64,000 nt of DNA from an uncultured Chlamydiae bacterium (GCA_963830365.1 CAWHMU010000035.1:1-64000), one strand, 5' to 3'; numbered from the stretch's first letter, positions 2,691 to 52,102 are shown. Notes: generated by a model from the sequence alone, not told the origin. Numbers and translations: made by a program.

Positions 2691-3602
2691 TTAATAGAAG
2701 GACCAAGCAAAATTGACGTTGAGGGCATAGTCAAACTTCTGTTGATAGCCGAAGAGATGCTGGCTTATGGGAAGGCTAACGCCGAACTGGATGATGATTT
2801 CATTCGATGAGATCCATAGCGAGGGGGTGGCATAGACCACGTTGCCGCCTGAATTTGCATCAAGCACACCATTGACCCTGTTTTTTTTGGTATATTGCCC
2901 GTCAATTTCTACCAGCCATGCATATATCCATCCTTCAGGGCTCGCTATATTTCTACCGATGCCAAATTGATAAAGGAATTGATCCCCGAATTTTGTACGT
3001 TGTTCGGAATTTGTTAAAATAGCTCCCGGCGCCGTAAAAAAAAACCAATCGACCATCGTGCGATAAAAGGTGGCGCCTATAAAGACACTTGGCGAGCCAA
3101 ATCCTGTCGGTGGATTTTTGCGGGCCGAGCCGGTTGGAAAGGTGATATTGGCCAATACCGTGGCTTGATCGATATAGGATATAGTCGATTTGTTATAGAA
3201 AGCATATTCCAGCTGGATAAGAAAATCCTCAAGACCGCTCGCTGTATAGCCATTACTCCTAATCAAGGGTGTAAAAGGAAGAGCGTACAGAATGGACCAC
3301 TCAGCCGTAATACCGAAGACCACATTTGGAAAAAGATCGATGGTGGTCTTATTTCTCCCCACAAATTCGTCGGCAAAGAAATTGACCAGGATTTCACCTT
3401 TATCGATGATGTTGCCGCCGAAACCAAAAAGCGCTGCAGGCTGCTGAGAGGTTGGCAAGGCGAAATTTCCGATTTTGGGAGGCTGCTCTTCACCCAGCAG
3501 TAGGACAGGGCTAAAGAGAAGCCACCACGCCACGAGCTGCGCAAACTTCAGCCTTAAAGCCCTGCCGGATTGTATTTCACCTCTTCCGGAATAAGATGGC
3601 AT
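2691..3602 (-). CDS. Putative outer-membrane beta-barrel protein; true start uncertain
   Basis: Hydrophobic signal-like segment, alternating beta-strand pattern, FPTG..PTGFGS, C-terminal NVNFAWSFY. Confidence 0.6.
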   Translation of the reverse strand: MPSYSGRGEIQSGRALRLKFAQLVAWWLLFSPVLLLGEEQPPKIGNFALPTSQQPAALFGFGGNIIDKGEILVNFFADEFVGRNKTTIDLFPNVVFGITAEWSILYALPFTPLIRSNGYTASGLEDFLIQLEYAFYNKSTISYIDQATVLANITFPTGSARKNPPTGFGSPSVFIGATFYRTMVDWFFFTAPGAILTNSEQRTKFGDQFLYQFGIGRNIASPEGWIYAWLVEIDGQYTKKNRVNGVLDANSGGNVVYATPSLWISSNEIIIQFGVSLPISQHLFGYQQKFDYALNVNFAWSFY

Positions 3603-4341
3603 TCTCGTCCTCTATCATCGAAATCATGTCACATGCCGCATAGAGGGCGCAGAAAGCGTCTTTTTTAGGCTGCTGCCCGTTAATTGTGATAAACACATTA
3701 GACATCAAAATGTAGCCATGGCGATTGACTTTGGGAAGATATAAATTCACATCTTGTAGAGATATTTGCTTTGAATAATCGCCATCCAAATGCAAAAAAT
3801 CAATTCCTTCATTGACACCAGAAGCAGCCGCTTGAGAGGTCTTCTGGATGATGGTGCAATATTTCTCCAGCTTCCATTGGCGCAGCAGCGTTTTAAATTG
3901 CTGTTTTATACTTGTCATGTCGACATGTTCCCACCAAGACCTGTTTGCATCCGATGGATCCATATATTTGACAGCTTCGCTATTAGACCAGGCATCGATG
4001 GCATAGACTTTACCCTTTTGGATGTATTTGAGCGCGGCAGCGATGGGAAGCGTTGAGGAGCCGGCAAAAACGCCTATGTCGACGCACACCCTTGGCTTAG
4101 TGAGCACCACTAAATCCATAATGAGTTGAGCTTTTTCATTGGAACACCAGCTTCCAGTCAGATACGCCGATACATCAGCTTTCAAATTAATGAAATCGTC
4201 ATTATTGAGAACCGTGGCAGCTTTATTCGATATGCACTCAGGATCCCATGCTGCGATTAAATTTGTAAAGGTCGACAACAGCAAAACGACGAGTATAGTT
4301 TTTGTTTGGACAGCCTTGATAAAATCGCTTTTTAGCCTCAT
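3577..4341 (-). CDS. Class I SAM-dependent methyltransferase (Methyltransf_24-like) with signal-peptide-like N-terminus
   Basis: VDIGVFAGSS, AIDAW, DFLHLDGDYS; ATG 4341 overlaps the upstream TGA (ATGA). Confidence 0.82.
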   Translation of the reverse strand: MRLKSDFIKAVQTKTILVVLLLSTFTNLIAAWDPECISNKAATVLNNDDFINLKADVSAYLTGSWCSNEKAQLIMDLVVLTKPRVCVDIGVFAGSSTLPIAAALKYIQKGKVYAIDAWSNSEAVKYMDPSDANRSWWEHVDMTSIKQQFKTLLRQWKLEKYCTIIQKTSQAAASGVNEGIDFLHLDGDYSKQISLQDVNLYLPKVNRHGYILMSNVFITINGQQPKKDAFCALYAACDMISMIEDENAILFRKR

Positions 4342-5318
4342 AGACCTTCCTGGATACTGCCATTCAAATGAACTGATGTTTGTGAATTTATTACCCATTG
4401 GGTCACAAGGTCTATTAAATTATTCCTAATTGGAATATATGCTTCTGGATTTGGGCCTGGGTGATCGAAATCAAACTCAAACTCGCCACGCAGAAATTCA
4501 TCACGGGTACAGTTGCGCACAAGTTCTTTTAGCCCATCAAAGCGGGCAGAGCCCTTCTGATTGATCAACAATACTGGTGTCTCCAAGGCCAGATTGGGCA
4601 GGGTGGCATGCAACCTTGTGGTGACGACGCATTTAGCCCTTTTATACTTTTCCAAAAGGTTTTCGGCGTAGTTTAGCCTTTGTTGATTCGTGAGGAAGGT
4701 TATGAACTTAAGGCCGTGATGCACCACCTCGACTTTAGACTGTGTTTTCGACTTCAGATATGCCAGGCACGCACTGTCTATATCCACGGCATAAATGATG
4801 TCTCCCCTCTCTTGGCAGTCGTTTTCTAACGTCAGGGTAAGGCAGCCTGAAAAGTAAGATGGGATATTTTGCGCCTGCAGCAGATGCAGGGTAGGATAAT
4901 CTCTAGCGCCTACTGGCCCATGCTGTTTAAGATAGGCGATGCCTTCATCGGATAAGGCTTCAGGTACAAAGCCTGGGTCAAGATGGATAGATATTAAGAG
5001 TGGATCTATTGAGGGCGGAGGCGGCCAGCATTTATCGGGCGGAGGAACATCATTTACATACCAGCAGTAGTCTTTGGTATGCATATACCAGCCATTCATT
5101 AGCGTTTTAACGGCTCCGGCATGCTCAAAAGCGCCTATAAATTCCCGATCGATGGCAATACTGTTTTCGGGTAAAAACCTTTTGGCAGCGACAGCTTGGA
5201 TATCATCCCCGATATTATAGCTGGAATAGGAAATATATCCAAAATCGGTTTGCGCATAGATACATGCATAAATTAGGACAAGTGGAAGAAATGCCGATAT
5301 TGTCTTTTTTTTCATCAA
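4338..5318 (-). CDS. Polysaccharide pyruvyltransferase-family protein with signal-peptide-like N-terminus
   Basis: NIGDDIQ, VGARD, FSGCLTLTL, VVTTRLHATLP motifs; MMKKKTISAFLPLVLIYACIYA. Confidence 0.85.
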   Translation of the reverse strand: MMKKKTISAFLPLVLIYACIYAQTDFGYISYSSYNIGDDIQAVAAKRFLPENSIAIDREFIGAFEHAGAVKTLMNGWYMHTKDYCWYVNDVPPPDKCWPPPPSIDPLLISIHLDPGFVPEALSDEGIAYLKQHGPVGARDYPTLHLLQAQNIPSYFSGCLTLTLENDCQERGDIIYAVDIDSACLAYLKSKTQSKVEVVHHGLKFITFLTNQQRLNYAENLLEKYKRAKCVVTTRLHATLPNLALETPVLLINQKGSARFDGLKELVRNCTRDEFLRGEFEFDFDHPGPNPEAYIPIRNNLIDLVTQWVINSQTSVHLNGSIQEGL

Positions 5319-16129: not shown

Positions 16130-16840
16130 ATGAAAAAGCTTTTTTCCATTTATTTTCTGCTGACAACTGCCATAGGCTTTGCTTTAGCTGCGTCAGACAA
16201 GCTCGCAACCACTAGCACTGTTGTATCTATCCCTAATAAAGTTTTGATGAAAATTCACAATCACATTTGCACCAATAGTTGGGTGAAATTATATTATGAT
16301 GTACTGCCAAGAGTCATCCAGCAACAAAAATACAAGACCATGGTTGAAGTCGGTGTAGCCATGGGCGGCAATGCAGAATCCATTCTACAAAATACAAACA
16401 TCGACATGTATTACGGCGTAGATCCATATCTATACAACTACGATCCCAATGACAGCTTCAGCGCCGATGTGGCCGCCTATAGTTCAGCCGAAGGGCAGAA
16501 AAATTTCGATTATCTATACCAATGGGTGAAAAACTATAGATTGGCACCCTATCAGCAGCGGTCTCAACTTATCAGAGAAAAATCCGTGAATGCTTCACTA
16601 TTGTTTGATGATGACTCGCTGGATTGTATTTTCATCGACGGCGATCACCGCTACGAAGCTGTCTTGCAGGATCTGGCAGCATGGTATCCAAAATTAAAAC
16701 CAGGCTGCATGATGCTGGGTGATGACTACTGGATGGATAATGTCGCTCGTGCTGTCGATGAATTCTCCATTTCACAAGACAAAGATGTTTTTTTCTTCGT
16801 GTCAGATGCAGGATATCGGATATGGGCCATTTATAAGTAG
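16130..16840 (+). CDS. Class I SAM methyltransferase (Methyltransf_24-like) with signal peptide
   Basis: GGAGG RBS then MKKLFSIYFLLTTAIGFALA; VEVGVAMG, GVDPY, FIDGDHRYE, GDDY. Confidence 0.88.
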   Translation: MKKLFSIYFLLTTAIGFALAASDKLATTSTVVSIPNKVLMKIHNHICTNSWVKLYYDVLPRVIQQQKYKTMVEVGVAMGGNAESILQNTNIDMYYGVDPYLYNYDPNDSFSADVAAYSSAEGQKNFDYLYQWVKNYRLAPYQQRSQLIREKSVNASLLFDDDSLDCIFIDGDHRYEAVLQDLAAWYPKLKPGCMMLGDDYWMDNVARAVDEFSISQDKDVFFFVSDAGYRIWAIYK

Positions 16841-17020
16841 CTGGACAGGCATCCGGTTGCAATCTTTTGCATCTATACCAGGATCTAGGTGAAAACGTTT
16901 TGATTTCCAGTATACAGATAGCCGGTAACTTTTCATCGAACTGTGAAAAATACACTCTAAAACCATCGTCTTTTAAGAATCCGCCCTTCTTACAAGCGCA
17001 AAAACAACAAAGGTCCGACT

Positions 17021-17860
17021 ATGCGAAAACAAATTACACTTTTCTTATGCTCCCTATGCCTCACTTCAGGCGCTTTGTTTAGCGAAGAAAAACCAAGACT
17101 TGCCGACTTTAAGTACAACGTCTTTTCCCAATTTGGTGAAGATGGAATCACCCAGCAAATCTTCGATACCATCGGAACGACATCTAAAGTCGTTATCGAA
17201 TTTGGCGCAGATGATGGATTCCAGTCCTCAAATACCGCCAACCTGTGGTCCAAAGATTCAAGCTGGCAAGGGATAATGATCGAATGCAGCGACTCAGCCT
17301 ATGCAAAGCTTGTCGAAAACCTAAAAGCCTTTAACTGCCTTCTCATAAATCGCAAAGTTGGCATTGGCCAGGATGATACCCTAGAAGCCATTCTGGAGGA
17401 CAATGACATAGACTTTAACATTGATCTGCTCTCTATCGATATCGATGGAAATGATTATTACATCTTTCGAAGCCTCAACCGCCTGCGCCCTAGAGTCATT
17501 ATCTGCGAATATAATCCAACGTTCCCCGCTGATCTGGATGTCTACCATGATTATGACGTCTATGCCGGGTGCTCGGTCGGGGCTCTTATACGGATAGGCA
17601 AAGCCAAAGGTTACTCTTTGGTAGCGATCACGGACACAAACTGCTTTTTTGTCCGCAATGAAGATTTCCCCAAATTTGACGCCTTTGAAACGCAACTGGA
17701 TAAAATACGAATCAACAAATACCTCCGCTATATCATCACGGGATATAACGGGGTCTACACCGTAATCGGACAAAGTGATTTTATAAATCCTTACGGTCTT
17801 TTCTACCCCTCTCCAAACACACCTAAAGGAAATATTACTGTACTGCCCAACCCTAGATAG
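17021..17860 (+). CDS. FkbM-like methyltransferase-fold protein with signal peptide
   Basis: SQFGEDGI, IEFGADDG, LLSIDIDGNDY, RVIICEYN, NCFFVR. Confidence 0.8.
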   Translation: MRKQITLFLCSLCLTSGALFSEEKPRLADFKYNVFSQFGEDGITQQIFDTIGTTSKVVIEFGADDGFQSSNTANLWSKDSSWQGIMIECSDSAYAKLVENLKAFNCLLINRKVGIGQDDTLEAILEDNDIDFNIDLLSIDIDGNDYYIFRSLNRLRPRVIICEYNPTFPADLDVYHDYDVYAGCSVGALIRIGKAKGYSLVAITDTNCFFVRNEDFPKFDAFETQLDKIRINKYLRYIITGYNGVYTVIGQSDFINPYGLFYPSPNTPKGNITVLPNPR

Positions 17861-17955
17861 ATTGATTCTGGATTGTGGGGAGCCTATTTAAACAATAATT
17901 CCAATATGGAATAGGTCTCCCCTGCCTTCCTTTACAACTAGATGCTGGTATACAA

Positions 17956-17994
17956 CGCAGACGCAAAGTTTTTACGATCTTCTTTGCGTCTGCG
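17956..17994. repeat. Perfect 13-bp inverted repeat between convergent genes (dyad-repeat family; possible terminator)
   Basis: CGCAGACGCAAAG / CTTTGCGTCTGCG. Confidence 0.6.
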
Positions 17995-18016
17995 CCCTTC
18001 ACTTTTGCAAATGATA

Positions 18017-19084
18017 CTAGTTGGAATTGTTGTATAATTTTATCTGCTCTTCGATCCAGGGATAAAGCTGCTTAAGCCCAGCTTCCAAACTTTGCGTCGG
18101 CTTCCAACCCAGTGTTTTTTCAATTAAGTCGTTATCGGAATTTCTTCCCCTGACACCTTCCGGCCCTGGCACGTTTTTAATGACGACTTGTTTGCCCGTT
18201 ATCTTGGCAATAAGCAAGACCAGGTCGTTAATTGAGATCAACTCCTCTGAGCCTACATTCAACACGGGAATGCCTTTTTCTGCATTCATCATGCGCCTTA
18301 TGCCTTCCACACATTCGTCGATGTAAAGAAATGAACGCGTCTGATCGCCTTTACCCCAAATTTCGATGACCCCGCCCTCATTTGCTAAAGCCACCTTGCG
18401 GCACAATGCAGCTGGCGCTTTCTCACGACCTCCATGCCATGATCCCAAAGGCCCAAAGACATTGTGAAAACGGGCGATACGAACATCCATGCCATAATCG
18501 CGCACATAGGATTGATACAAACGTTCGCTAAAGAGCTTCTCCCATCCGTATTCTGTATCAGGAGCTGCTGGGTATGCTGTATCTTCGGCACACTTGGGAT
18601 TTTGAGGGTCTAGCTGATTGCGTTCTGGATAAATACATGCCGAAGATGAATAGAAGATTTTCTTAACACCGGTGAGACGGCATTCTTCGGCTACATTGAG
18701 ATTGATTAAGGCAGAATCGTGCATAATTTCTGCATCATGGGAACTAATATAGCCCATGCCACCCATATTGGCAGCTAGTTGGCAGACCTCATCAAAAGGA
18801 GATTCTCCGGCAGCCTGTGCAAAAGCTTTGCTGGTCGCATCAGGATTTCGCAGATCTGCAATAATAAATTCATCAGCATCAGTTTCTTCATACTCAGGAT
18901 ATTTGATGTCGACGCCGCGCACCCAAAACCCTTCCGACTTGTAGCGTTTCACTAAATGATGACCAATAAAGCCGCCGGCACCGCAGACAACTACTTTTTT
19001 TGAATTCGGCACCGCTGGGGCTTCAGCACTTAACGGAATGCAGAATCCCAATGTGATGAGCAATAACAAGAATCTCTGAATCAT
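18017..19084 (-). CDS. GDP-mannose 3,5-epimerase-like extended SDR with signal-peptide-like N-terminus
   Basis: GAGGFIG, AANMGGMGYI, SSSACIYPE, YGWEK, GGREKAPAALCRK, GPEGVRGRNSDN match GME signature segments; start MIQRFLLLLITLGFCIPLSA with GGAG RBS. Confidence 0.85.
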   Translation of the reverse strand: MIQRFLLLLITLGFCIPLSAEAPAVPNSKKVVVCGAGGFIGHHLVKRYKSEGFWVRGVDIKYPEYEETDADEFIIADLRNPDATSKAFAQAAGESPFDEVCQLAANMGGMGYISSHDAEIMHDSALINLNVAEECRLTGVKKIFYSSSACIYPERNQLDPQNPKCAEDTAYPAAPDTEYGWEKLFSERLYQSYVRDYGMDVRIARFHNVFGPLGSWHGGREKAPAALCRKVALANEGGVIEIWGKGDQTRSFLYIDECVEGIRRMMNAEKGIPVLNVGSEELISINDLVLLIAKITGKQVVIKNVPGPEGVRGRNSDNDLIEKTLGWKPTQSLEAGLKQLYPWIEEQIKLYNNSN

Positions 19085-19247
19085 GTGTCGATCTCCTTTT
19101 AGTTTGATATTAAGCTCCATATCAGCCTGTAGCGGCATACAAGTAAGCTCTACGAAAACTACAAAAAGAAAACACATTGACAAAAAAAAATATTTTTTGC
19201 AAAAGGATTTGTTTTTTAAATATCTTTACCGCAGCAAGGAGCAATAT

Positions 19248-19604
19248 ATGCATTATTTTTTAATAACAATGCTTTCGTTTTTCGCTCCTCTTGCTGCAGA
19301 GATGGCCCATGAACAAATAGCAAATGATGAATATTCTTTGGCTTATGTGCATATCGGCCCCCTGTTGCCAACATATCTTTCCACAGCTATAGCTCAGGCA
19401 CGTCTTTTCAACCCTGATTGTCCGATTTTCCTCATCGGTCAAAAGAACGCTTTATCCAAATATGACTGTACGGCTGAAAATGTGACACCCATTGCTATGG
19501 AAGAATTGGTGCCTGAAGAATTGGTGCCTACTGCGCAACATCAATCTTTCACACGGAATGTTCCACTACAGGGCCAACCCCGTTTTGGTCCGGCTTACCA
19601 TTAA
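19248..19604 (+). pseudogene. Short, probably truncated signal-peptide protein (putative glycosyltransferase N-terminus)
   Basis: AAGGAG RBS, MHYFLITMLSFFAPLAA, VHIGPLLPTYL..AQARLFNP; 15-bp tandem duplication at 19500-19529 (EELVP x2); ends after about 118 aa. Confidence 0.5.
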
Positions 19605-19609
19605 ACTAA

Positions 19610-20596
19610 ATGACAAAGGTTTTTATGTTACCAAAATTTCTCGTGGTATGTCTACTTTGCTTAACCAAGTTGTCTGCCGACTCGGCAGTCACTTATGATT
19701 TCAGTGGCGGACGTTTTGGGGACAACGTGCTTGCATATCTGCATACAAAATGGCTTTCATATCACTATGACATTCCTCTGCTTTACAAACCATTTGCCTA
19801 TTCATCCGAGCTGCTATTAGATGGTAATGAAATCCCTTACAGCGCAGCCTGCCACAACTACGCACTCCAACGGACTTTAAGTGAGAAGGCACCAGAACCT
19901 CTTTTAGACAATTGTCTTTTTGTCTGCCCCTATTTCCCTGAAATCGAATGGGAATTGAAGAAAGAACATTATTTCACTTTTCCTATCGATTGGAAAAACC
20001 CGGAATTCAGAAAGCTTGCCAACGAAATGGTTTCATTAAAGAACGAACGACCTCTCACATATCCTCCTGGAGACACTCTTTCTATAGCCATTCATATGCG
20101 TGAGGGAGGAGGATTTGATGATGAAGAACACAAAATCAAACATCCCTTAAAAACACCTCCGGTGACTTTTTATATTGACAGTCTCAAAAGCGTGTTGGAT
20201 TTATTTCCAGGTCAACCGCTGTACTGCTACATCTTTACGGATGCATTACACCCGGATGTATGGATCGATAAAATCCAGCAAGCACTTCCAGAGGCTCCGA
20301 TTACATTCGCATATCGCAGTCAAGGCAACAGGCATGATTCGAATGTTTTAGAAGATTTCTTTTCACTATTCAATTTTGACATTCTCATCCGTGCAGAATC
20401 CAACTACAGTATTGTTCCTTCGCTAATTCACGATTATGCGGTTGTTTGTTATCCAAAGACCTATTCAATCAAAAGCAGAGTTGTCACGATCGAACAAATC
20501 ATCGTCGATATCGATGACGAATGCTTGCAAAAATGTCTGGATAAATATGTGGACAATTCAACTGTCACGATAGGAGACAATAATGAAAGGAAATAG
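19610..20596 (+). CDS. GT11 / alpha-1,2-fucosyltransferase-like protein with signal peptide
   Basis: GGRFGDN, AIHMREGG (HxR), YIFTD, EDFFSL, ESNYS resemble GT11 motifs. Confidence 0.62.
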   Translation: MTKVFMLPKFLVVCLLCLTKLSADSAVTYDFSGGRFGDNVLAYLHTKWLSYHYDIPLLYKPFAYSSELLLDGNEIPYSAACHNYALQRTLSEKAPEPLLDNCLFVCPYFPEIEWELKKEHYFTFPIDWKNPEFRKLANEMVSLKNERPLTYPPGDTLSIAIHMREGGGFDDEEHKIKHPLKTPPVTFYIDSLKSVLDLFPGQPLYCYIFTDALHPDVWIDKIQQALPEAPITFAYRSQGNRHDSNVLEDFFSLFNFDILIRAESNYSIVPSLIHDYAVVCYPKTYSIKSRVVTIEQIIVDIDDECLQKCLDKYVDNSTVTIGDNNERK

Positions 20597-21258
20597 TTTT
20601 AGAATTCTAGCGGCACTGTACATGCTATTTTAAATAATTGTTCATGTCTATGACGGCGATGTAAATGAAAAATGGCCGAGTCCCACACCATGGCTTAAGG
20701 ATCGCTGCACTGACTTTTTAGAAGAGATGCCGCACAATGCGCGTGTCGCTGAAATCTGAGTGCAATGCGGAGGCTTCGCAAGTGTTATATTGCGACAAAC
20801 AAATCTAAAAAAGCTTATTCTCATTGATTTCTGGGAACAACAAGACCCGACTATTTATGATGATCCCGAAGCCAATGTTCCAGACCACCTGCAAGAACAC
20901 CTATATCAAGAAACAAAAAACCGTTTTGCTGTCGATTCACGAGTCGTTATTTTGAAAAAATATTCCAAAGATGCCGTAAAACTATTCAAAGACGAGTATT
21001 TTGATTGGGTATATATCGATGCCAATCATGGCTACGATTCGGCCAGTGAAGACATCGCTCTTTGGTGGCCAAAGGTCAAAAAAGAGGGCTATTTGGCGGG
21101 TCATGACTACATCGTCAGAGAATCTTTCGGTGTTTTGCAGGCTGTTAATGAGTTTCTCAATGAACAGGATCTCAATTTCAGCTTTCTGACCAACGAAAAC
21201 AGTGCAGCCACTCACAATGACTTATGACAGCTGGGCAATTCAAAAACCAATTGATTAA
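20583..21258 (+). pseudogene. Methyltransf_24-like methyltransferase pseudogene
   Basis: ATG 20583; in-frame TAA 20631 and TGA 20757 (VAEI*VQCG = broken EIGV motif); YIDANHGY, GHDY; frameshift before terminal YDSWAIQKPID. Confidence 0.82.
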
Positions 21259-21282
21259 GAAAGTTGATTGATCACGCCCTCT

Positions 21283-21352
21283 CCTCTGTGATCTCTGCTG
21301 ACGCTGTGGTGGTAAATATTTAAAACCAGAGTCCGCAGAGATTGCAGCGAAG
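21283..21352. repeat. Imperfect palindromic dyad-family repeat
   Basis: CTCTGTGATCTCTGC...GCAGAGATTGCAGCG; similar to 13632-13665. Confidence 0.5.
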
Positions 21353-21589
21353 GGAATTAATCCAAGCTTAATCAGGGGCATTATCGGTTAGATTCGACAG
21401 TCTACAGAGCTGCCGCAGTCATCCATAATCTACTCTTGAGTGCATTCAGGAATAAAAAATCGCTGACACTCCTAACAAGGTTATTCTTTAATGAAGGTGG
21501 ACTTGGAGTGGCTCGAATGACCGTTTGACAAGAAAAAAATTATACTGCATACAGATTGGTTCATTAATTTCCTGTGCCTTCTTATAATC

Positions 21590-22372
21590 ATGGAGATATT
21601 CATGCGTAACTTTCTTTCAAATCTGACACTCCTGTGCCTTTTTGCCGCCGACGCGACCGCCTCCGATTATCCTTTCTACCGCTTTGAACTTCCCGAAAGC
21701 TCGCTTGCTATTATCCAAAAATTCCTGCCAGAAGACCCCGTCATTATCGATGCCGGAGCTTTTGATGGGAAGGAAAGTGTCGTCATGTCCAAGCTCTGGC
21801 CGAATGGCACAATCCACTCATTTGAACCCGTCCCTTACTTATACAAAATACTTTTGCGCAACACCAAAAGTGCACCTAATATCTATGCCTACAATTTTGC
21901 TTTAAGTTCAACTAATGGGATGGCAGAAATGCACTTATCGGTAAACGATAATGCTCCGAACATACCTGTGATGTCCAGCTCGCTGCTTCCTCCAAAAGAT
22001 CATTTTCTTTTTTCTCCGGAAGTCATTTTCCCAACTGTTATTCCTGTATATACCTATAACTTGGACAGCTGGGCAAAAGCCTTTGATATCGACAGGATAG
22101 ATCTAATGTGGCTCGACATGCAGGGTGTTGAACTCAACGTATTAAAATCCTGTCCCGATATTTTAAATACAACCAGCGTTATCCTAACGGAAGTTGAATT
22201 CACTGAAGCCTATGACGGACAATATTTATATCAAGATGTAAGGGATTTTTTGGAAGAACAGGGATTTGTCCTGATCGGAGGAAATTTCAACCCTGAAAAC
22301 CCCCGTGAAAACGGCTCATTTTTTGGCGACGCACTCTTCATCCGTTTTGAACTTTTACTCCCCAAATGGTAA
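21590..22372 (+). CDS. FkbM-family methyltransferase with signal peptide
   Basis: IDAGAFDG, HSFEPVP, MWLDMQGVEL, LTEVEF, FGDALF. Confidence 0.9.
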   Translation: MEIFMRNFLSNLTLLCLFAADATASDYPFYRFELPESSLAIIQKFLPEDPVIIDAGAFDGKESVVMSKLWPNGTIHSFEPVPYLYKILLRNTKSAPNIYAYNFALSSTNGMAEMHLSVNDNAPNIPVMSSSLLPPKDHFLFSPEVIFPTVIPVYTYNLDSWAKAFDIDRIDLMWLDMQGVELNVLKSCPDILNTTSVILTEVEFTEAYDGQYLYQDVRDFLEEQGFVLIGGNFNPENPRENGSFFGDALFIRFELLLPKW

Positions 22373-22820
22373 CGCAATGACGACTATGTTTTCCTTCACC
22401 ATTTCGTATCACTAAGCGCTTGAAGATCAATATTTCTCCATGGGAGCAGCCACCCACATCCGATTTCTCATCAGTCAGTATAATGTTGCTGAGCTTCATA
22501 GGAGCCGCCATAGCTTTAGCCCATGCCATAGCGCCATACGGTGCAAACCGCGGGTTACAAATATAACAGCTTCCAAGGAGCACAGCCACAAACACATAAC
22601 GGCTAAAGGGAAATTAGGATGCAGCAACTTTCCTTAGCGCTGTAATGCCTGCATTGCCACCTGAATTTATCGTCGGGCTTGAGGCGCACCTTGTCGAAAA
22701 CTCCTGGGCGCAGCTATACGCCTAAAGGGGTTCGTTGAAGATTTATAAATCGTGAAAGATAAAAACCTTTGTTTATATTTATAAAACTCTAGTCACAGGC
22801 TTTTTTGCTAAAGCCGCACA

Positions 22821-23711
22821 CTATTTAACCCTAATTTGTTGATTCATCAGCATTGAAATCTGGTCAATATAAGACCAACCATTGATCGCCTTTTCTCTTT
22901 GTTCCTCAATATGCTTTAGACACGAATCTTCAAGCAGCGGCCTGATTGATAAAATTGTATCAAAGAAGTCTATCCCGATGCGATTCGTTGTAGACTCTCG
23001 CGTGTAATAGCCACCTACGTCGACACGATGCCAATAATAGGTTCCAGGCAAATATGTCATTTTCGATCCGGTGAGCACCTGCCTAAGTCCAAACGAAAAG
23101 GTGTCTGTTGTCAACCGTGGGGGATACCCTCCTGCATTGTCGAAGCTGGTGCGGGTATAAAGGTAATTCCCTGACCATGGCGGCGTATTTTCATTTGCCA
23201 AAAGGGCTTCGAGGTCATAATAGCCATCGGCAGTAGCATATTGCACGGTTGACAAAGGGACGAAATCACATTTGAAATATCGCATGCCACCAAAGGAAAC
23301 AACGTCGGCTGATGTTTCATCCATCCTTTCAATCAACCCTTGGATGGAATCGGGACAAAGGACATTATCTGAATCCAAACAGAAAATCAAATCGCCCCGG
23401 GAATGATAAACACAGGTATTGCGTGTAAGGCTGCCTCCCTGATTTCTCAAATGCCTATACACCTTGATTTCAGGAAACGCCGATGCCAATCTATCTAAGA
23501 TGGAATGGGTGCTATCTGTAGAGCCATCGTCTGTACAAACGATCTCAAAAGGGCATTGCAGATCATTTTGGAGATAGATCGAATTGATGGTCTCTTCTAT
23601 CCAATTCTCGCAGTTATAACATGGTATGATATAGCTCAAAAAGTGTTCGGAAGATTCAACTTGTCCGCAAAAACACAAGTAAGCCAATACACATGCAACA
23701 AAACGTCTCAT
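22821..23711 (-). CDS. GT2-family glycosyltransferase with signal-peptide-like N-terminus
   Basis: SYIIPCYN, TDDGSTD, NQGGSLTRN, CLDSDN (DxD). Confidence 0.9.
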   Translation of the reverse strand: MRRFVACVLAYLCFCGQVESSEHFLSYIIPCYNCENWIEETINSIYLQNDLQCPFEIVCTDDGSTDSTHSILDRLASAFPEIKVYRHLRNQGGSLTRNTCVYHSRGDLIFCLDSDNVLCPDSIQGLIERMDETSADVVSFGGMRYFKCDFVPLSTVQYATADGYYDLEALLANENTPPWSGNYLYTRTSFDNAGGYPPRLTTDTFSFGLRQVLTGSKMTYLPGTYYWHRVDVGGYYTRESTTNRIGIDFFDTILSIRPLLEDSCLKHIEEQREKAINGWSYIDQISMLMNQQIRVK

Positions 23712-23822
23712 CTTATCATCCTTAAAAATTAAAAAGTCTCTGCCGAGTCAAGGGGACATATATTTTGTGATAATGGAATTTTTTCTCAAATATTCTAAAA
23801 ACAGGATTATCCAAATCCGCTG

Positions 23823-25367
23823 TCACCATCTGACAACTCCATTGCCGTCTACTATGGCATTTTGAATAATATTCAAAAACTCACCTACAGGAATACCCCA
23901 CGCCGTGCTCTTGCTGCCAAACGACACGAGACCATGCAACGCAGGGGCCATAACGGTTCTGGCAAGCAACAGCTGGTCTTCGGGGATCATCTCCAAAAAG
24001 CCATCCTGGCTGATTACTAAATCATAAATTTCAGGTTCACCAGCCTTAAGGGTACTAATAAAATTCACATTTGTTATCCCATTTTTGTTGAGGAAGGCCG
24101 CTTTAGAAAGCAAAAACGGAGGACGATCATAACAGGTATAACTGGAGAAGCCGGATATGTCGTATAGAATTTTACATAAAATTCCATCTTTACCACCAAT
24201 TTCAGCAATCTTCATCTCCCGAAGGCTATCCCCATATTGATTAAGGATATCGCAAGCTATCTTCACATACCTAAGGACAGGAGGTGAAATCAATATTCCT
24301 TTGTCGTCATAATGGACATCCAATCCTTGCATAAAGCCGAATTCAACCGATTGCACGAGATAATTTTCGATTAATGGATATGTCATTTTGGCTTCTTCCC
24401 TGAATTTCAAACCTTCATTCAGACTGTATTTAGAGATTAGTCTTTGACATCCGGTAATGAAATGAATGTGGTGCCCGGTCACTAGCTCGTCCTGCATTTC
24501 CATCACACGGTCAAACCAATAAGGGGCATAAAGTTTTTCTCTAGACCATTCCATGCCTTCAAATTCTTGGATTTTCCGCAACAGAAACTCTTCAGTCACC
24601 TCTTCCCATGTATCAATAATTACAATGGGAAGATCTTTATATAACGGATTTAAAGTCGTACTCTTAACGATCGGATAACATCCCATCAAAAGGGCTTCCC
24701 AAGTGCGATGGCAATCCAAACCATTTCCCGGTGGGCTCACAACAAATATTGTATCGGAAAGATCGTGGAGATATTCACTAAATGGTTTGGGATTTTCTTT
24801 GCGGCAAAAAGGGCAATTCTCGAAATACTTCCTACAAGGGTACCGCGAAGCTATATTTGTACTTGTGCTGAAATTTAAATAACTAAGAAAGAGTTTTGAT
24901 TCTATTCGCTTTTCCAGTGAATTAGGTATGTAAAAATCGAGAAGGGAAACATCCCCGTGTGACCAGACAGTATTGGCGAGCCCAATTGGAATTGGAATCA
25001 ATTTATCTGTGGGTTCACAGTCGATATTTTGCACCAACCACCGGTAGACCATTGGACTTTCCAGAATGGGGCGATGAATGCCGGGCAAAGGATCGTCCCC
25101 CCCCTGCTCGGAATTGGCAGTGACCAAGATAAACTTATTTTGGATATAAGGGAGATAAGATTCTAGGAATTTTGATAATGAATCATGCTCACAAAAAATC
25201 GTATCGCCTAACTGAACTTTGGCAGGGTCGAACGTGCTATAAATTGACAGCTCCCAGTCACAAAAAAAACGCCATGTGTCCCCGGCAAGGTAGGGATAGC
25301 TTGAACTTCGTTCTTTTGCACAAACAATTGAAATCGGCAGCAAAATCAGCAAGATCCATCTCAGCAT
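23823..25367 (-). CDS. Exostosin/GT47-like domain fused to a divergent sugar O-methyltransferase-like domain, with signal peptide
   Basis: PIPIGLAN, SPPGNGLDCHRTWEALLMGCYPIV; C-terminal SPPVLRYVK, IAEIGGKDG, YDLVIS. Confidence 0.68.
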   Translation of the reverse strand: MLRWILLILLPISIVCAKERSSSYPYLAGDTWRFFCDWELSIYSTFDPAKVQLGDTIFCEHDSLSKFLESYLPYIQNKFILVTANSEQGGDDPLPGIHRPILESPMVYRWLVQNIDCEPTDKLIPIPIGLANTVWSHGDVSLLDFYIPNSLEKRIESKLFLSYLNFSTSTNIASRYPCRKYFENCPFCRKENPKPFSEYLHDLSDTIFVVSPPGNGLDCHRTWEALLMGCYPIVKSTTLNPLYKDLPIVIIDTWEEVTEEFLLRKIQEFEGMEWSREKLYAPYWFDRVMEMQDELVTGHHIHFITGCQRLISKYSLNEGLKFREEAKMTYPLIENYLVQSVEFGFMQGLDVHYDDKGILISPPVLRYVKIACDILNQYGDSLREMKIAEIGGKDGILCKILYDISGFSSYTCYDRPPFLLSKAAFLNKNGITNVNFISTLKAGEPEIYDLVISQDGFLEMIPEDQLLLARTVMAPALHGLVSFGSKSTAWGIPVGEFLNIIQNAIVDGNGVVRW

Positions 25368-25747
25368 ATAATTTCCTGTCTTGAATTTGATATGAAAAAA
25401 GATTCCAGGTTACCAAGCCAAAGCAGTTAACCACGGCATACGCTCAATTTGTAAGTTGAAAAGCTGTCTGCCATCAAATAGCTCCTGAACACAGCTTAGA
25501 GTCGATTTACTCGATAATTTCAGGCTTGTGCGCTAAACCATAGTCATTCAAGATTCAAATGTCAATAATTCTTGATATTCAGCGTAGGGGAACTTTTACT
25601 CGCACTTGCATGCACAAAATTTTCCGGAATAATCTTTCAATCCCTTTACTCTGTTGTGGGGCTACGAAATAATGTTCGCATTCACACCTTTTAAAAAAAA
25701 CACCTTTCCTAAAATCTGTCATTTTCAGCATAAATTGCGAAAGAAAA

Positions 25748-25858
25748 GTCCGTGATTGGTTAGAGGCATGAGGATTTGTTCTCTGGGCCGGCAATTTTTA
25801 ATTTCCACGGGCTAAAACTCAATGGTTTGGAGACTGGTTATTTGTCGTAAAGAACTAG
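25748..25858 (+). pseudogene. C-terminal remnant of an FkbM methyltransferase
   Basis: VRDWLEA*GFVLWAGNF*FPRAKTQWFGDWLFV aligns by eye with VRDFLEEQGFVLIGGNF...FFGDALFI of 21590-22372. Confidence 0.7.
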
Positions 25859-26366
25859 TGGATCGCTGACCAGTTTCATAAAAATATTCTCTTATGACTA
25901 TACCAAGCTCTTTACTTATTGATACAGCGCATCGGCGGTGTGGAACCGTCTATCTGCCAGCGGTATTCATCTAAACAGTCTATTAATAAAGGAAAAACGA
26001 TTATGAAACGAATATTATGTCTTTTTCTTTTGGCTATAACCACATTGCTATCATCTCATGAATACAGTCAAAACCATGCAATTTCTTATCAGGGGGGAGA
26101 TCGCTTTGGGGATCGGATGTTGGTATATGCACAGGCCCGTTACTTAAGCTACATTACCTCGGTGCCTTTTTTATATCGGTCTTTCATTTATAGCGATCTC
26201 ATCACAGCTGACCATGAAGCGGACTTATTTGATGATCAAAAAACGAACTTCCAGCAAACTCTGGTAATTAATTCATTCGATTCATTAAACGAATTTTTCC
26301 ATCGCATAGATAATCCAGAATCACCATCGACGCTCTTTATTGTCGGCTATTTTCCTTCGGATATAA

Positions 26367-28082
26367 CCTCATTTCCCGTAAGAATTATAACTAGGTACAA
26401 TACAAGTCATTAAACAACAATGCTTTGACACTTAACTTTAAAACTTCTTTCCTTTTTTCATGGTTATAATTATAACCATGAAAAAAGGAAATCATATGAC
26501 CTATCGAGTACATCAGATAAACAAGAAAACTGGCATTACATATGTTTATGAGGCTGTTTCATGCTGGGATAAGAAAAAAAAACAAGCGCGCAATAAACAG
26601 GTGTGCATTGGCAAACTTGATCCTGCCAACGGAGAATTCGTTCCGGCTAAGCGTCTTGCGCCTGAACAAGCTGCTGTTAGAGATCCGATTGTCACAGCAT
26701 CTGCCGAGATAGTAGGATCTTCGATTATTCTCGACACCATCACCGACCAGTTAGGTCTGGAAGGGCTGCTAAAATCCAGCTTTCCTAAGGAGTACCGACA
26801 GATTCTAACAATGGCTTACTATCTCGTTTCCCAAGGTGGTCCTTTGAGCCATTGTGGGGCGTGGTGCAAAAGTCATGCACATCCTTTTGGAACACCATTA
26901 ACGAGCCAGTGCATCACTGAGATCCTTCGTGCAATTAGCATCGACAAGAAACAAACTTTTTTCACGAAATGGATGAATAAGGTTTTGGAGGATGATTACC
27001 TTTGTTACGATATCACTTCCATCTCATCATACTCAGAACTCAATGAATACATCAAATACGGCCACAACCGTGACTTAGACAAGTTACCGCAGCTGAATCT
27101 TGCCATACTCTTCGGCCAAAAGGGACGCTTGCCCGTGTATTTCGAACGGATTCCAGGAAACATCACCGATGTCACTACATTACACAACCTTCTAAAGACC
27201 TTCAAAGCTTTGGAGACAAAGACCCTTCACTATGTGATGGACAAGGGGTTCTACAGCAAGAAAAACGTTGATGAACTGCTTGCTTCTAGAGACAAGTTCA
27301 TGCTATCGGTTCCTCTGAACAATAAATGGGTACAGCACGCTATTGATGATATCTATGAGGTCATTCACGGGCCTGAGGGATACCAAAAGCTTGATGATGA
27401 AATCCTTTATGTCCACTCTCGCCTCTACCCATGGGGAAAGGACAACCGTCGCTGCTACCTACATCTTTACTACAATGCACATGCACGGGCTAATGCAGTC
27501 GATCGGTTTAGCGAGGAACTGGTTGGATACAAGAAGGAACTGGAATCAGGAAAAGCCATAAATGAGCACCAAGAAGCATATGATACATTTTTTGTGGTGA
27601 AGACAACCCCTAAACGGGGAATTCAAGTTTCGTACAACACCCAGGCTGTAAACCAGTACATTAATCGCTATGCTGGATTCCAAGCATTGCTGACCAATAG
27701 CATCAAAAGCCCAACGGAATCTCTACAGATCTATCGAGACAAAGACATCGTGGAAAAGTGCTTCGATGATCTTAAAAATCAGTTAGACATGAAGCGTCTG
27801 CGTATGCACAGCTCTGCAACTGTTGATGGCAGGCTCTTCGTTCAGTTCATTGCTCTTATCTATGTAAGCGCTTTACGTAGAGAGATGAGAAAGTCTACGC
27901 TTATTGAGCGCTACACAGTTCGCGAGCTTCTGCAAGAAATGGACACGCTAACCAAAGTGAAGTATTCCGGCAAGTACGGGCACATTCTCACAGAGATGAC
28001 GAAACCACAGCGAGATATTTTGAAAGACCTGAACATTACCCTGCCTAGCAAGACCTAGTTATAATTTTTACGGGAAATGAGG
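26367..28082 (+). mobile_element. IS1634-family insertion sequence, 1716 bp, complete
   Basis: 30-bp terminal IRs (26367-26396 and 28053-28082, 1 mismatch) and 6-bp target duplication ATATAA (26361-26366 and 28083-28088). Confidence 0.95.
26460..28058 (+). CDS. IS1634-family DDE transposase
   Basis: YDITSISSYS, YGHNRD, GNITDV, VMDKGFYS, YRDKDIVEKCFDDLKN. Confidence 0.93.
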   Translation: MVIIITMKKGNHMTYRVHQINKKTGITYVYEAVSCWDKKKKQARNKQVCIGKLDPANGEFVPAKRLAPEQAAVRDPIVTASAEIVGSSIILDTITDQLGLEGLLKSSFPKEYRQILTMAYYLVSQGGPLSHCGAWCKSHAHPFGTPLTSQCITEILRAISIDKKQTFFTKWMNKVLEDDYLCYDITSISSYSELNEYIKYGHNRDLDKLPQLNLAILFGQKGRLPVYFERIPGNITDVTTLHNLLKTFKALETKTLHYVMDKGFYSKKNVDELLASRDKFMLSVPLNNKWVQHAIDDIYEVIHGPEGYQKLDDEILYVHSRLYPWGKDNRRCYLHLYYNAHARANAVDRFSEELVGYKKELESGKAINEHQEAYDTFFVVKTTPKRGIQVSYNTQAVNQYINRYAGFQALLTNSIKSPTESLQIYRDKDIVEKCFDDLKNQLDMKRLRMHSSATVDGRLFVQFIALIYVSALRREMRKSTLIERYTVRELLQEMDTLTKVKYSGKYGHILTEMTKPQRDILKDLNITLPSKT

Positions 28083-28900
28083 ATATAACCGAATGGGATC
28101 AAGACAAAAGTAATTGCCTTCTATTGAATATTTCCTGGTATGAGGAAGGCTTTCACGAATATCTGAAAAATTCAGCCTCTCCGCGCATCCAAATCCCTGA
28201 TTTGACAAAAAAGGGCGTTTTAAATGTTGCCGATCATGTCCGCGCCTTAAGCGGGAATGACACACCTGAGACTTCCATTCAGTTCTTACCATTAAAGGTT
28301 CCGAATCTGGACTACCATAAAAATCAGATCAGAAGGGTTTATGAATTAAATCAGCATCGGCCGATGCATGTGTTTCTCTTTAGTGATACAAAAAAACCTG
28401 AAGCTCTTATCGAGGAATTCCGCAATAGCTTTATTGGTTATGATATTGAATTCGGAATCCAATACTTGGAAAATCCCGATACCAATTATGCCGTCCAAGA
28501 TTTTTTTGCGATGCAGAAATTTGATGTGTTGATTGCTACACAATCAAACTTCTCGATGATGGCATCCAGAATAGGCACGCCCGGTATGGTAATTTTTCCT
28601 ATTAGAGTCCAAGGAACATACCCAAACGCCTGGGTTGACAGAATTCAACTCATCTCGAAAAAATCTGAGTGGTTTCCCTACGACTTAGATATTACAGTTA
28701 AGGATTATAAAAAATGATTTTCAAACCAACGTAACTGAGTACATGTTCATGAGGCAGGGTGGTGTATTCTCCTTGTGGAGTGCCCGCAACACTTTCTGTA
28801 AAGGCACGCGCACAAGCACAAAAACGCACTACTCCTTCAGCGGATTTGGCAGGCAATTTCCAAGCTAATAAAATATAATTCTACAACCATATTGACGATG

Positions 28901-48735: not shown

Positions 48736-49587
48736 GTGAGCTATTTGATTTTTTGTTTTTTCATGCCAGCTTTAATCTTCGCAACCCCCACGCAGGATCA
48801 TCAGGCTTCCTGGAGCAGTGCAGACAGCCAAGCCTTTTTTGGCCAGCATCTGCCGCTTAGCGATAGCGGGAAAATAAATATCCCCGCCAACATCAAGCAT
48901 GTAAAATTGGATATCGGACTGTCATGGTGTGCTCCGATGTCCCAGGTATGGCTGGCAAAAGAGGATGACCTGATCGTTTTCGGTTTTGAGCCACATCCAA
49001 AGTCTATAGCTTCGATAAAAAATGGCAGCTGCGTGCCAGACGCTTGGGCTAGGGATTATCTTGATCCCCTCCATCCCATTCGGCATAAAAGTGAAATCCC
49101 GAAACTTTTCGGGACGCACTTTTTCCTTATTCCTTGCGCCTTAGGCTTGTCACAAGATAAAACGGCGACGTTTTACCTGACAGGAAACGATTGCGGCTGT
49201 TCAAGCCTCTTTGCCCCAGTAACGATACCTGTCATCGATATCATTGAGGTGCCGGTTTTGCCCTTGGCAAGTTTTTTTGACATCTTCCCCTTTGACACCC
49301 ATCCATTTATTGATTATATCAAAATCGATGCGCAAGGCGCAGACCTGGATATCGCCAAAAGCGCTGGAGCCTACTTGACAGAGCGAGTCGTTTGCATTAC
49401 CCTTGAACCGGAAAATAACGCATATGAAGGCACCAAAAATTCCCTAAATGATGTGGATGCATATATGTCAGCCATGGGCTTTCAAAAATACGATTCTAAG
49501 AACACCGGCGATCCCACGTACGTAAATATTAAGTTTATGCAGTATTTTTTGGATCACCAGGAACTGCACATCTTCCAGCAGGGTTAA
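48736..49587 (+). CDS. FkbM-family methyltransferase with signal peptide
   Basis: LDIGLS, FGFEP, PCALG, IKIDAQGADL; GTG start with GAGGGG RBS. Confidence 0.82.
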   Translation: MSYLIFCFFMPALIFATPTQDHQASWSSADSQAFFGQHLPLSDSGKINIPANIKHVKLDIGLSWCAPMSQVWLAKEDDLIVFGFEPHPKSIASIKNGSCVPDAWARDYLDPLHPIRHKSEIPKLFGTHFFLIPCALGLSQDKTATFYLTGNDCGCSSLFAPVTIPVIDIIEVPVLPLASFFDIFPFDTHPFIDYIKIDAQGADLDIAKSAGAYLTERVVCITLEPENNAYEGTKNSLNDVDAYMSAMGFQKYDSKNTGDPTYVNIKFMQYFLDHQELHIFQQG

Positions 49588-52090: not shown

Positions 52091-52102
52091 ACTTTCTCTC
52101 CT

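Follow-up and report, generated by a model that had tools for sequence, protein, structure and literature searches.

Wzx/Wzy, ABC-transporter and synthase pathways build bacterial surface polysaccharides from cytoplasmic nucleotide sugars, and what crosses the membrane is either lipid-linked units or the polymer. In the Golgi, nucleotide-sugar transferases work in the lumen, on the non-cytosolic side, with imported donors; Golgi enzymes have a type II membrane topology, and in eukaryotes GDP-mannose epimerase and UDP-glucose dehydrogenase reside in the cytosol. The bacterial system considered here differs from the Golgi in that its epimerase and dehydrogenase also bear predicted leaders.

The nearest precedent is the type III-secreted glycogen synthase of Chlamydia, which acts on host UDP-glucose. 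According to the glycogen-related part of PMC4829429, the inclusion lumen of C. trachomatis uses host-made UDP-glucose, which SLC35D2 imports for the glycogen enzymes, and GlgA, GlgB and others are, like the enzymes proposed here, nucleotide-sugar enzymes acting outside the bacterium on a host donor. In that account the activating pyrophosphorylase stays inside, and such enzymes are likewise leaderless in the present case: those inspected as whole sequences have no true leader, the calls made on three of them by the scoring rule described below being their catalytic N-terminal strand. As described there, however, the C. trachomatis enzymes have no signal peptide, leave by type III secretion and make one storage homopolymer, with no donor interconversion, methylation or pyruvylation, whereas the present island combines Sec-type leaders with many enzyme families, extends to two phyla and would probably make a complex glycan. 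Because the island has leaders and other enzyme families, a type III-secreted glycogen system was rejected as its identity.

Other described systems share single traits with it. Chlamydial Sec/T2S cargo is alike in predicted export route and parasite group, but the members named in the relevant part of PMC6717882 (CPAF, CT311, CT795, Ptr) are proteases, nucleases and unknown proteins. Chromulinavorax, from the same parasite groups, carries signal peptides on 44% of its CDS, and the words 'glycosyl' and 'methyltransferase' do not occur in the available portion of its description (PMC6561590). The Megavirinae fibril clusters, as covered by part of PMC10117803, have the same mix of glycosyltransferases, methyl- and pyruvyltransferases and nucleotide-sugar enzymes, and coat the parasite's own surface; giant-virus enzymes, being synthesised within the host cell, can do without a leader (of 58 parsed viral dehydrogenase loci, 57 were uncalled, and the one called has a normal ATG directly before the fold), whereas the island enzymes are bacterial and leadered. 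In the literature searched, we found no report of leader-bearing exported glycan enzymes of this kind.

The window, the whole 64,000-nucleotide stretch analysed here (GCA_963830365.1 CAWHMU010000035.1:1-64000), comes from an environmental chlamydia whose genome is 82% complete. A preliminary description had singled out an island of glycan-tailoring enzymes that nearly all start with a signal peptide (Table 1). We called leaders with a home-made n/h/c-region rule rather than a validated predictor, and following an initial run the rule was re-tuned a single time (cut for hydrophobicity lowered from 2.4 to 2.2, glycine filter added against Rossmann strands), so that the counts are not blind. By this rule a Sec-type leader was called at 9/9 testable island starts (seven intact genes, one truncated and one IS-split), compared with 367 of the 1641 ORFs of at least 150 aa in the genome (22%), giving a binomial p of ~1e-6 for a home-made, tuned rule. 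The same rule called leaders on 4/4 outlying genes at 3577-5318 and 47674-49587 and on 0/14 genes of the sugar cluster at 49884-63979, bearing out both the outlying leaders and the cluster's use as an internal control; its genes are GmhA-, HldE-, nucleotidyltransferase- and dehydratase-like (NCBIfam best matches, mostly below cut-off). The near-universality of leaders stands for the island and weakens beyond it: genome-wide, FkbM matches carry a leader in 7/8 cases by the rule and in all 8 by eye, but Methyltransf_24 matches in only 5/8, plus one broken leader, and two leaderless Methyltransf_24 genes sit elsewhere in the genome.

Table 1. Features of the window (positions counted from its first nucleotide; leader calls by the home-made rule)
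Feature	Position	Strand	Size and evidence
Methyltransf_24, outlying, predicted signal peptide	3577..4341	-	PF13578 E 1e-15, leader call
Polysaccharide pyruvyltransferase, outlying, predicted signal peptide	4338..5315	-	PF04230 E 2e-11, leader call
Methyltransf_24 SAM-dependent methyltransferase, predicted signal peptide	16130..16840	+	236 aa, PF13578 E 4e-15
FkbM-like methyltransferase, predicted signal peptide	17021..17860	+	279 aa, PF05050 E 1.4e-5
GDP-mannose 3,5-epimerase (extended SDR; by similarity), predicted signal peptide	18017..19084	-	355 aa, PDB 2c59 E 3e-92
Truncated gene, leader-bearing family present in other islands	19248..19604	+	118 aa
GT11-like, fucosyltransferase-fold (GT-B) glycosyltransferase, predicted signal peptide	19625..20596	+	323 aa, fold and features
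Methyltransf_24 pseudogene	20583..21227	+	PF13578 E 8e-15 on 3' part
FkbM family methyltransferase, predicted signal peptide	21602..22372	+	256 aa, PF05050 E 3e-20
GT2 glycosyltransferase, predicted signal peptide	22821..23711	-	296 aa, PF00535 E 3e-31
GT114-like glycosyltransferase with C-terminal methyltransferase-like domain, predicted signal peptide	23823..25367	-	514 aa
FkbM-type gene remnant, 3' piece only	25742..25855	+	blastx, two L002 FkbM-type proteins, E 8e-7, 5e-6
Second GT11-like gene, 5' half, predicted signal peptide	26003..26366	+	leader call, GGxRFGD motif
IS1634-family element, terminal inverted repeats	26367..28082	+	transposase ORF 26460-28058, NF033559 E 5e-85, above cut-off
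Second GT11-like gene, 3' half beyond IS	28083..28717	+	profile A1 match 28088-28657, E 5e-30
FkbM-like protein, outlying, predicted signal peptide	47737..48720	+	33% identity to paralogue 17021, E 2e-26, leader call
FkbM methyltransferase, outlying, predicted signal peptide	48736..49587	+	PF05050 E 9e-10, leader call
Control: ordinary leaderless nucleotide-sugar cluster, outside the system	49884..63979	-	0/14 leader calls

The island is leader-rich as first described, but its gene tally needs correction, since four of its eleven genes are broken by stops, truncation, an IS or reduction to a remnant and seven are intact. The truncated product at 19248 had no Pfam match and is, over 84 aa, 38% identical to the N-terminal region of an L003 protein of 327 aa that bears a leader, while the pseudogene at 20583 has a leader-like start and, in translation, two in-frame stops in its 5' part. 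The IS1634 element is flanked by a 6-bp target duplication (26361-26366 and 28083-28088) and has five other full-length copies that are 99.4-100% identical. This partial decay, with a recent burst of near-identical IS copies, would suit a system that is real in relatives and survives in the source genome only as a remnant without current function. We regard that as very improbable, because the seven intact genes keep their catalytic motifs and leaders and because other islands of the genome hold 19 further Pfam-assigned glycan/methyl enzymes, 17 of them with leader calls.

Among the enzyme families first proposed, FkbM/Methyltransf_24, GT2 and the extended SDR were recovered, and the pyruvyltransferase lies outside the island, among the outlying genes. 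The 16130 gene has AGGAGG upstream and a called leader, and matches PDB entries only weakly, the best being sugar O-methyltransferases (E 0.006-0.03); the FkbM protein at 21602, also with a called leader, matches TIGR01444 above cut-off. The GT2 domain begins at residue 26, behind a called leader, and contains DxD-type motifs. By full-length similarity and catalytic segments, the predicted product of 18017-19084 is a GDP-mannose 3,5-epimerase: residues 28-349 align with the plant enzyme 2c59, the NAD-binding motif matches, as do the SSACIY, YxxEK and REKAP segments, and the start is preceded by AGGAG, with no further ATG ahead of the Rossmann motif. Neither proposed GT11 gene has a Pfam match. 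The product of 19625-20596 also lacks any NCBIfam or PDB sequence match, PF01531 included, and is GT11-like by fold and features only; its Atlas look-alikes are PF01531 at 0.95, and its AlphaFold model (pLDDT 94) finds FUT1, POFUT1 and FUT8 as best Foldseek matches (E 3e-7 to 4e-5, TM 0.4-0.5), so that the modelled fold is of the GDP-fucose-type GT-B class. The 23823-25367 product is, judged by its sequence, a relative of the beta-xylosyltransferase A075L (GT114) of chlorovirus PBCV-1, which is treated in part of PMC11571054. It matches PDB 8q8i/8avq/8asa with a phmmer E of 4e-20 (family profile E 4e-55) and retains the A075L donor-site residues Asn148, Arg158, Arg208 and Glu211. Opposite the catalytic base Asp73 stands Glu87 in the pairwise alignment but an insertion column in the family alignment, and an Asp close to Glu87 may act as base. 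Its C-terminal domain shows 29% identity to an L002 Methyltransf_12 protein.

The eight leaders quoted in the preliminary description proved real, being in frame with the catalytic domains and starting with ATG (16130, 17021, 19084(-), 19625, 21602, 23711(-), 25367(-), 26003); these starts and that at 19248 are preceded by ribosome-binding-like words (AGGAGG, AGGAG, GGAG, AGGA or AAGG). By the home-made rule, 9/9 island leaders have a positive n-region, a short h-region and small residues at -3/-1, and they stop just short of the first catalytic strand. No lipobox was matched in ten island starts, only one leader opens with two Arg, and TatC was not found across five genomes, all incomplete; SPII lipoproteins and Tat substrates were accordingly rejected. 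Signal peptidase I was found. Some bacterial glycosyltransferases bear N-terminal anchors, the substrates of all these enzyme families are normally cytoplasmic and the calls come from a home-made rule, all of which would fit uncleaved membrane anchors, with the enzymes tethered at the cytoplasmic side of the inner membrane, or non-functional extensions. We consider this a slim possibility. The hydrophobic runs span only 8-12 residues in the island (median 9, maximum 13 among homologues), and a 19-residue window reaches 2.2 hydrophobicity in only 3/98 and 3/99 homologues. Positive charge is on the N side, exceeding the C side in 89/98 and 85/99 called leaders (the opposite in one each), an asymmetry partly built into the rule. 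The dehydrogenase leader terminates a few residues ahead of the first strand, and independent families all carry leaders, which are gained or lost jointly across adjacent genes, entire cassettes switching as one. Leader identity among homologues is 20%, compared with 50% for the mature part.

The expected restriction of leaders to host-associated lineages was also observed: orthologues in Chlamydiota and Babelota carry them, and those from viral contigs or from free-living bacteria are leaderless. Leaders were called in 98/120 homologues of the 19625 protein and in 75/120 of the 17021 protein, named free-living ones being leaderless. Among the best 80 of 586 epimerase matches six have a leader; around these six 50/71 ORFs encode leader-bearing soluble proteins, compared with 78/811 around leaderless ones. 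Of 30 chlamydial epimerase loci 10 have a leader, and where the closely related dehydrogenase adjoins, it has one in 7/7 cases next to leader-bearing and 0/2 next to leaderless epimerases. This dehydrogenase has an N-terminal extension at 8/8 Babelota loci (six called by the rule) and a leader at 8/10 chlamydial loci. Close leaderless dehydrogenase relatives are located on giant-virus MAG contigs.

Leader-type loci resemble Wzx/Wzy, ABC and synthase loci in their clustered, strain-variable glycosyltransferase, epimerase, dehydrogenase and tailoring genes, but differ in the absence of flippase-like membrane proteins. At least seven predicted membrane helices were found at 1/6 leader loci (in a nucleotide-transporter-like gene) versus 36/74 leaderless loci, and gene and Pfam inspection of the island found no flippase, polymerase or ABC permease, for which reason a Wzx/Wzy or ABC-type locus was rejected. 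Counts of Wzx and GalU over whole genomes gave no distinction between leader and leaderless genomes, and neither an acceptor molecule nor a carrier was found.

Regarding precursors, chlamydiae import host SAM (PMC3104491), and NTT transporters gave three strong matches. The source genome encodes MetK and hence its own SAM synthesis, so that SAM need not come from the host. ManC was not found in 5/13 leader genomes, compared with 0/22 others; the remaining 8/13 have a ManC-like match, and in one Babelota genome (G401) leaderless ManC and Gmd lie ~10 kb from a leader-bearing dehydrogenase, so GDP-mannose may be the bacterium's own. Together with MetK and a transporter-like membrane gene that adjoins a second island at C35:64-65 kb, this would agree with exported enzymes that are self-supplied, cytoplasmic nucleotide sugars and SAM passing an inner-membrane transporter for periplasmic assembly. 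We find this unlikely, given the leader genomes in which ManC was not found, the lack of any GalU match among 30 chlamydial genomes and the consideration that there would be little point in exporting an epimerase and a dehydrogenase if donors were made inside.

It is equally unlikely, in our judgement, that the enzymes are effectors which, after Sec, leave by T2S or vesicles for the inclusion lumen and the cytosol of the host, where they remodel host glycans or build a matrix around the inclusion. Such a route is described in part of PMC6717882 for C. trachomatis CPAF, CT311 and CT795, Sec/T2S cargo reaching the lumen, and GspF is present in 38/40 further family genomes, as it is in each of three Babelota-type genomes examined; GspE/GspF were not found in the source genome, where absences are weak because the essential SecY was likewise missed. 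The leaderless relatives on giant-virus contigs and the one solved relative, a chlorovirus enzyme, also favour effectors, but Pfam revealed no host-targeting domains in island proteins and the variable enzyme mix is closer to surface-glycan loci, such as the giant-virus fibril clusters covered in part of PMC10117803, than to single-target effectors.

The core proposal of the preliminary description, that enzymes of a host-associated bacterium are exported by Sec and act on glycans outside its cytoplasm, agrees with every comparative test run on these sequences. We judge the arguments for and against evenly balanced that a Sec-exported nucleotide-sugar pathway uses activated sugars of the host to assemble, outside the cytoplasm, a methylated surface glycan. 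The enzymes would cross the inner membrane by Sec, have their leaders cut by signal peptidase I and, because no Tat system was found, be loaded with NAD after export. Host GDP-mannose, UDP-sugars, NAD and SAM would arrive in the periplasm, a necessary passage for host metabolites heading to inner-membrane importers. There, once exported, the epimerase and the dehydrogenase whose gene lies 40 kb downstream could interconvert donors on site to GDP-L-galactose/L-gulose and uronic acids; the GT11-like, GT114-like, GT2 and other transferases would attach sugars, and methyl- and pyruvyltransferases would cap them. A flippase would be unnecessary and the product would be a coat of the bacterium itself, made first in the periplasm and possibly in the inclusion lumen.

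There is perhaps an even chance that environmental chlamydiae and Babelota run an entire nucleotide-sugar glycan pathway beyond the cytoplasm, with the periplasm or inclusion lumen serving as a bacterial 'Golgi'. In it, Sec-exported donor-converting NAD enzymes, transferases and methylases, of families common with giant viruses of the same kind of host, would be fed by nucleotide sugars and SAM stolen from the host and would need no lipid carrier or flippase. If true, this would be an additional bacterial route of glycan assembly beside the Wzx/Wzy, ABC, synthase and sucrase routes.

The island at 16130-28717 comprises seven intact and four broken genes, the four lesions being called from the source assembly alone (2.73 Mb, 82% complete). 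The IS1634 element that splits one of them has five further full-length copies in the assembly (99.4-100%) and three contig-end pieces, and its burst in this genome is recent. The 19084 product (island proteins are named by their ATG start) aligns with plant GDP-mannose 3,5-epimerase (E 3e-92), NAD and catalytic segments being present, and the 19625 protein, for which Pfam gave no match, has a confident predicted fold (pLDDT 94) resembling FUT1, POFUT1 and FUT8. Similarity to chlorovirus A075L was found in the N-terminal domain of 25367 (E 4e-20; 4e-55 with the family profile), where the residues that PMC11571054 names for donor binding (one Asn, two Arg, one Glu) are conserved and the position of the catalytic base is ambiguous. 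Five further leader-bearing proteins remain without a family name in Pfam searches at E up to 2.

Features of the island, its surroundings and further related sites (contig C35, which holds the window, unless another contig or locus is named)
Position	Strand	Feature	State or remark
3577-5318		Outlying leader-bearing genes	
5322-12143	-	MoxR/Bat-type operon: AAA ATPase, DUF58-like, VWA, TPR, BatD-like genes	Labels by eye
14848-15942	-	Legionella_OMP-family outer-membrane protein	Directly precedes island; similar-looking gene in locus L003; could be a donor pore or acceptor
16130		Methyltransf_24	Intact
17021		FkbM-like	Intact
19084	-	GDP-mannose 3,5-epimerase	Intact
19248		Truncated gene	Broken
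19625		GT11-like enzyme	Intact
20583		Methyltransf_24 pseudogene	Two stops
21602		FkbM	Intact
23711	-	GT2	Intact
25367	-	GT114-like transferase with fused methyltransferase-like domain	Intact
25742		FkbM remnant	Broken
26367-28082		IS1634 element splitting second GT11-like gene	6-bp target duplication
38320-40021	+	GMC oxidoreductase, leader-like start	Two overlapping ORFs (frameshift)
40470-42224	-	Ankyrin-repeat protein, weak C-terminal J-domain match	Looks like a host-directed effector
47674-49587		Outlying leader-bearing genes	
49884-63979	-	Leaderless higher-sugar cluster: GmhA-, HldE-, ThDP-enzyme-, dehydratase-like genes	Low-GC middle (39% at 58-62 kb) suggests separate acquisition
64.9-73.5 kb (L123)		Second island: UDP-glucose/GDP-mannose dehydrogenase (leader call, 68.5 kb), FkbM and Methyltransf_25 protein; two leader-bearing paralogues without family; glycosyltransferase-like gene	Just past the window; last gene split by transposase-like ORF
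C18:31.2-39.1 kb (L124)		Leader-bearing genes	
C18:31223-33494 (L124:424-2695)		Two near-identical leader-bearing proteins with GxGRSGT motif	No Pfam match
C46:105-112 kb (L125)		Leader-bearing genes	
C34:43.9-45.7 kb		Leader-bearing genes	
C42:16.8 and 23.3 kb		Leader-bearing genes	
C21:35-40 kb		Leader-bearing genes	
C47:79.7 kb		Second GT114-like gene	
L001:391-3621		Related chlamydial island	Neighbours: sterol-reductase-like gene, NTT-like nucleotide transporter (labels by eye)

The preliminary description placed signal-peptide-like leaders on the island and outlying genes and none on the sugar cluster, and this was borne out by a home-made rule, not a validated predictor and adjusted once after its first run, which called leaders at 9/9 island starts, 4/4 outlying starts and 0/14 sugar-cluster genes, as compared to 367 of 1641 ORFs across the genome. 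The hydrophobic runs span 8-12 residues and in most cases net charge is positive before the run and neutral or negative after it, a test that is partly circular since the rule rejects negative n-regions. Together with the lack of a lipobox, on which lipoprotein anchoring was rejected, run length and charge pattern fit cleavable Sec leaders; by the positive-inside rule such leaders, even uncleaved, would leave the catalytic domain facing outward. Tat export was rejected as well, TatC not being found in five genomes. A further concern of the preliminary description, that the true starts lie downstream of the leaders, is contradicted by the start evidence: ribosome-binding-like words precede the island starts, the 19084 epimerase has no ATG between leader and Rossmann motif, and the leaders vary in sequence (20% identity vs 50% in the mature part) yet retain their character across hundreds of homologues, so that mis-called starts were rejected. 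At leaderless epimerase loci, 73/74 give no leader call from any in-frame upstream start. The leader feature is real and conserved, export is predicted from it, and judged on sequence the island leaders are very probably functional export signals.

Leaders were called in 98/120 GT11-like, 89/120 dehydrogenase, 104/150 GT114-like and 75/120 17021 homologues (47 of the closest 60 for the last), counts that, like those by genome, are descriptions and not statistical tests because related genomes are not independent. The idea that leaders track host-associated lineages agrees with their presence on Chlamydiota and Babelota relatives, the 17021 homologues in named Anaeromusa and Zetaproteobacteria being leaderless. 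Spread among chlamydial genomes is patchy (GT11-like 88/400 and GT114-like 47/200, with genome G005 unscored in both; FkbM 102/201), and none of the three was found in 28-30 scored genomes of one family with genomes of 1.0-1.2 Mb, likely the Chlamydiaceae. Unparsed loci (11/30 FkbM, 4/29 GT11-like) were left out of the counts.

The epimerase allowed leader-bearing and leaderless cassettes to be compared, as both kinds exist. Its three best relatives among named genomes are Chlamydiota, and leaders were recognised by eye in 6 of the best 80 of 586 such relatives (loci L001-L005 and L025); the rule fails to call one of these and wrongly calls one other. Around these six, 50/71 ORFs encode leader-bearing soluble proteins, compared to 78/811 around the other 74, and proteins with at least seven helices occur at 1/6 leader-type vs 36/74 leaderless loci. 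In a quick tree L001-L005 group with the window enzyme on a single branch (SH-aLRT 93), and L025 lies apart. A strong match was present in 32/401 genomes of the chlamydial phylum, and 10/30 chlamydial loci read carry a leader, all among the 15 closest. An adjacent, closely related dehydrogenase has a leader beside 7/7 leader-bearing and 0/2 leaderless epimerases.

The genome of locus L004 belongs to a phylum that was identified as Babelota, since proteins named Babeliales or Babeliaceae are identical to three dehydrogenases of that phylum. The dehydrogenase occurs in 8/151 Babelota genomes, with an N-terminal extension in 8/8, six of them called by the rule. A scan with a single chlamydial dehydrogenase gave no viral enzymes, and those found by alignment scan, several from giant-virus MAGs, gave one leader call in 58 parsed loci, that one with a normal start (22/80 left out as unparsed). 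In a FastTree of 59 rows, excluding viral rows above L195, leaderless dehydrogenases (L164-L167, P0194-P0240), from sources including giant-virus MAG contigs and one eukaryotic transcriptome, branch among the leader-bearing Babelota enzymes.

In regions of the same genome outside the island, picked by FkbM/Methyltransf_24 matches, leaders were called on 17/19 Pfam-assigned enzymes: GT25 (three), GT11, GT10, GT92, GT2, a pyruvyltransferase, methyltransferases and the UDP-glucose/GDP-mannose dehydrogenase at C35:68.5 kb. The sites on C18, C46, C34, C42 and C21, islands or singletons, hold glycosyl-, pyruvyl- and methyltransferases of these kinds and a DUF268 protein, and C47 carries a second GT114-like gene. 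The GxGRSGT motif of the two C18 proteins, which have relatives in 10/200 other genomes of the phylum, is presumably sulfotransferase-like; if so, PAPS would be one more donor required outside.

As to the export route, signal peptidase I is present, and a 993-aa secretin lies beside a protein kinase, which we take to be the usual type III context. GspE/GspF were not found in this 82% complete genome, an absence of little weight since SecY is missing too and GspF occurs in 38/40 genomes of the family. Three strong TLC/NTT transporter matches were found, which together with the secretin context, the best relatives of the epimerase and an exact match to a chlamydial 16S reverse primer mark the genome as that of a chlamydia; the forward primer does not match the 16S gene.

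The simplest account would be the relocation of a glycan pathway, as one unit, to the outer face of the inner membrane. Enzymes of donor activation, dependent on NTPs and sugar phosphates, would stay inside or be dispensable, and no flippase would be needed. Wzx counts are non-discriminating, with detection in 10/33 genomes and no split by leader type. Donor-converting enzymes are sensible outside only if their substrates are present and their products used there. Chlamydiae import host SAM via an inner-membrane carrier (PMC3104491) and C. trachomatis obtains host UDP-glucose in the inclusion lumen (PMC4829429), indicating that such metabolites can occur outside the bacterial cytoplasm; GDP-mannose and UDP-xylose may likewise do so. 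ManC was not found in 5/13 leader genomes as compared to 0/22 others (including G053 and G083, whose epimerase starts were not seen), and the ManC-, RmlA- and GalU-like proteins read have no true leader. The bacterium could instead supply its own precursors, and a ManC-like match in 8/13 leader genomes, as well as the presence in one Babelota genome of ManC and Gmd at a distance of about 10 kb from its island, count against strict host supply. MetK, found in this genome and in G403 and not in three others, means that host SAM is not forced. GalU is non-discriminating, being found in none of 30 chlamydial genomes of either type and in three Babelota-type genomes. We regard self-supply, one of two main rival readings, as unlikely. 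The exported enzymes might alternatively remodel the host, the other main rival, which we consider similarly improbable: the gene mix resembles that of giant-virus surface-glycan clusters (PMC10117803), and the bacterium's own coat was therefore taken as the most likely product. A Sec-exported pathway building that coat from host donors has, as a whole, about an even chance of being correct.

Bacterial nucleotide-sugar chemistry is regarded as cytoplasmic, only lipid-linked units or finished polymers crossing the membrane, as in the classification of bacterial polysaccharide routes; eukaryotic counterparts of the epimerase and dehydrogenase are cytosolic. In the literature searched, which lacks most subscription journals, no report was found of islands whose nucleotide-sugar enzymes bear signal peptides, for Chlamydiota or for Babelota, although supplementary annotation tables could list such proteins. 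The term 'signal peptide' is absent from the accessible portions of PMC9666466, PMC8242063 and PMC12172432, and that of PMC6561590 gives 44% of CDS with signal peptides without mention of glycosyl- or methyltransferases. Type III-secreted glycogen enzymes are one precedent for the working principle; for a pathway of several enzyme families, NAD enzymes among them, that is exported by Sec no precedent was found in the literature, nor a published system that explains the leader-bearing island.

An exported whole pathway with NAD-dependent epimerase and dehydrogenase would break the cytoplasmic rule and would reveal that intracellular parasites can draw on host metabolites in a novel manner, with no import step. 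The leader-bearing families are common in the phylum, and their absence from the likely Chlamydiaceae would explain why pathogen work missed the trait. The island would also be a source of soluble, secretable glycosyltransferases, and from it a methylated glycan coat, as yet undescribed, is predicted for parasites of protists.
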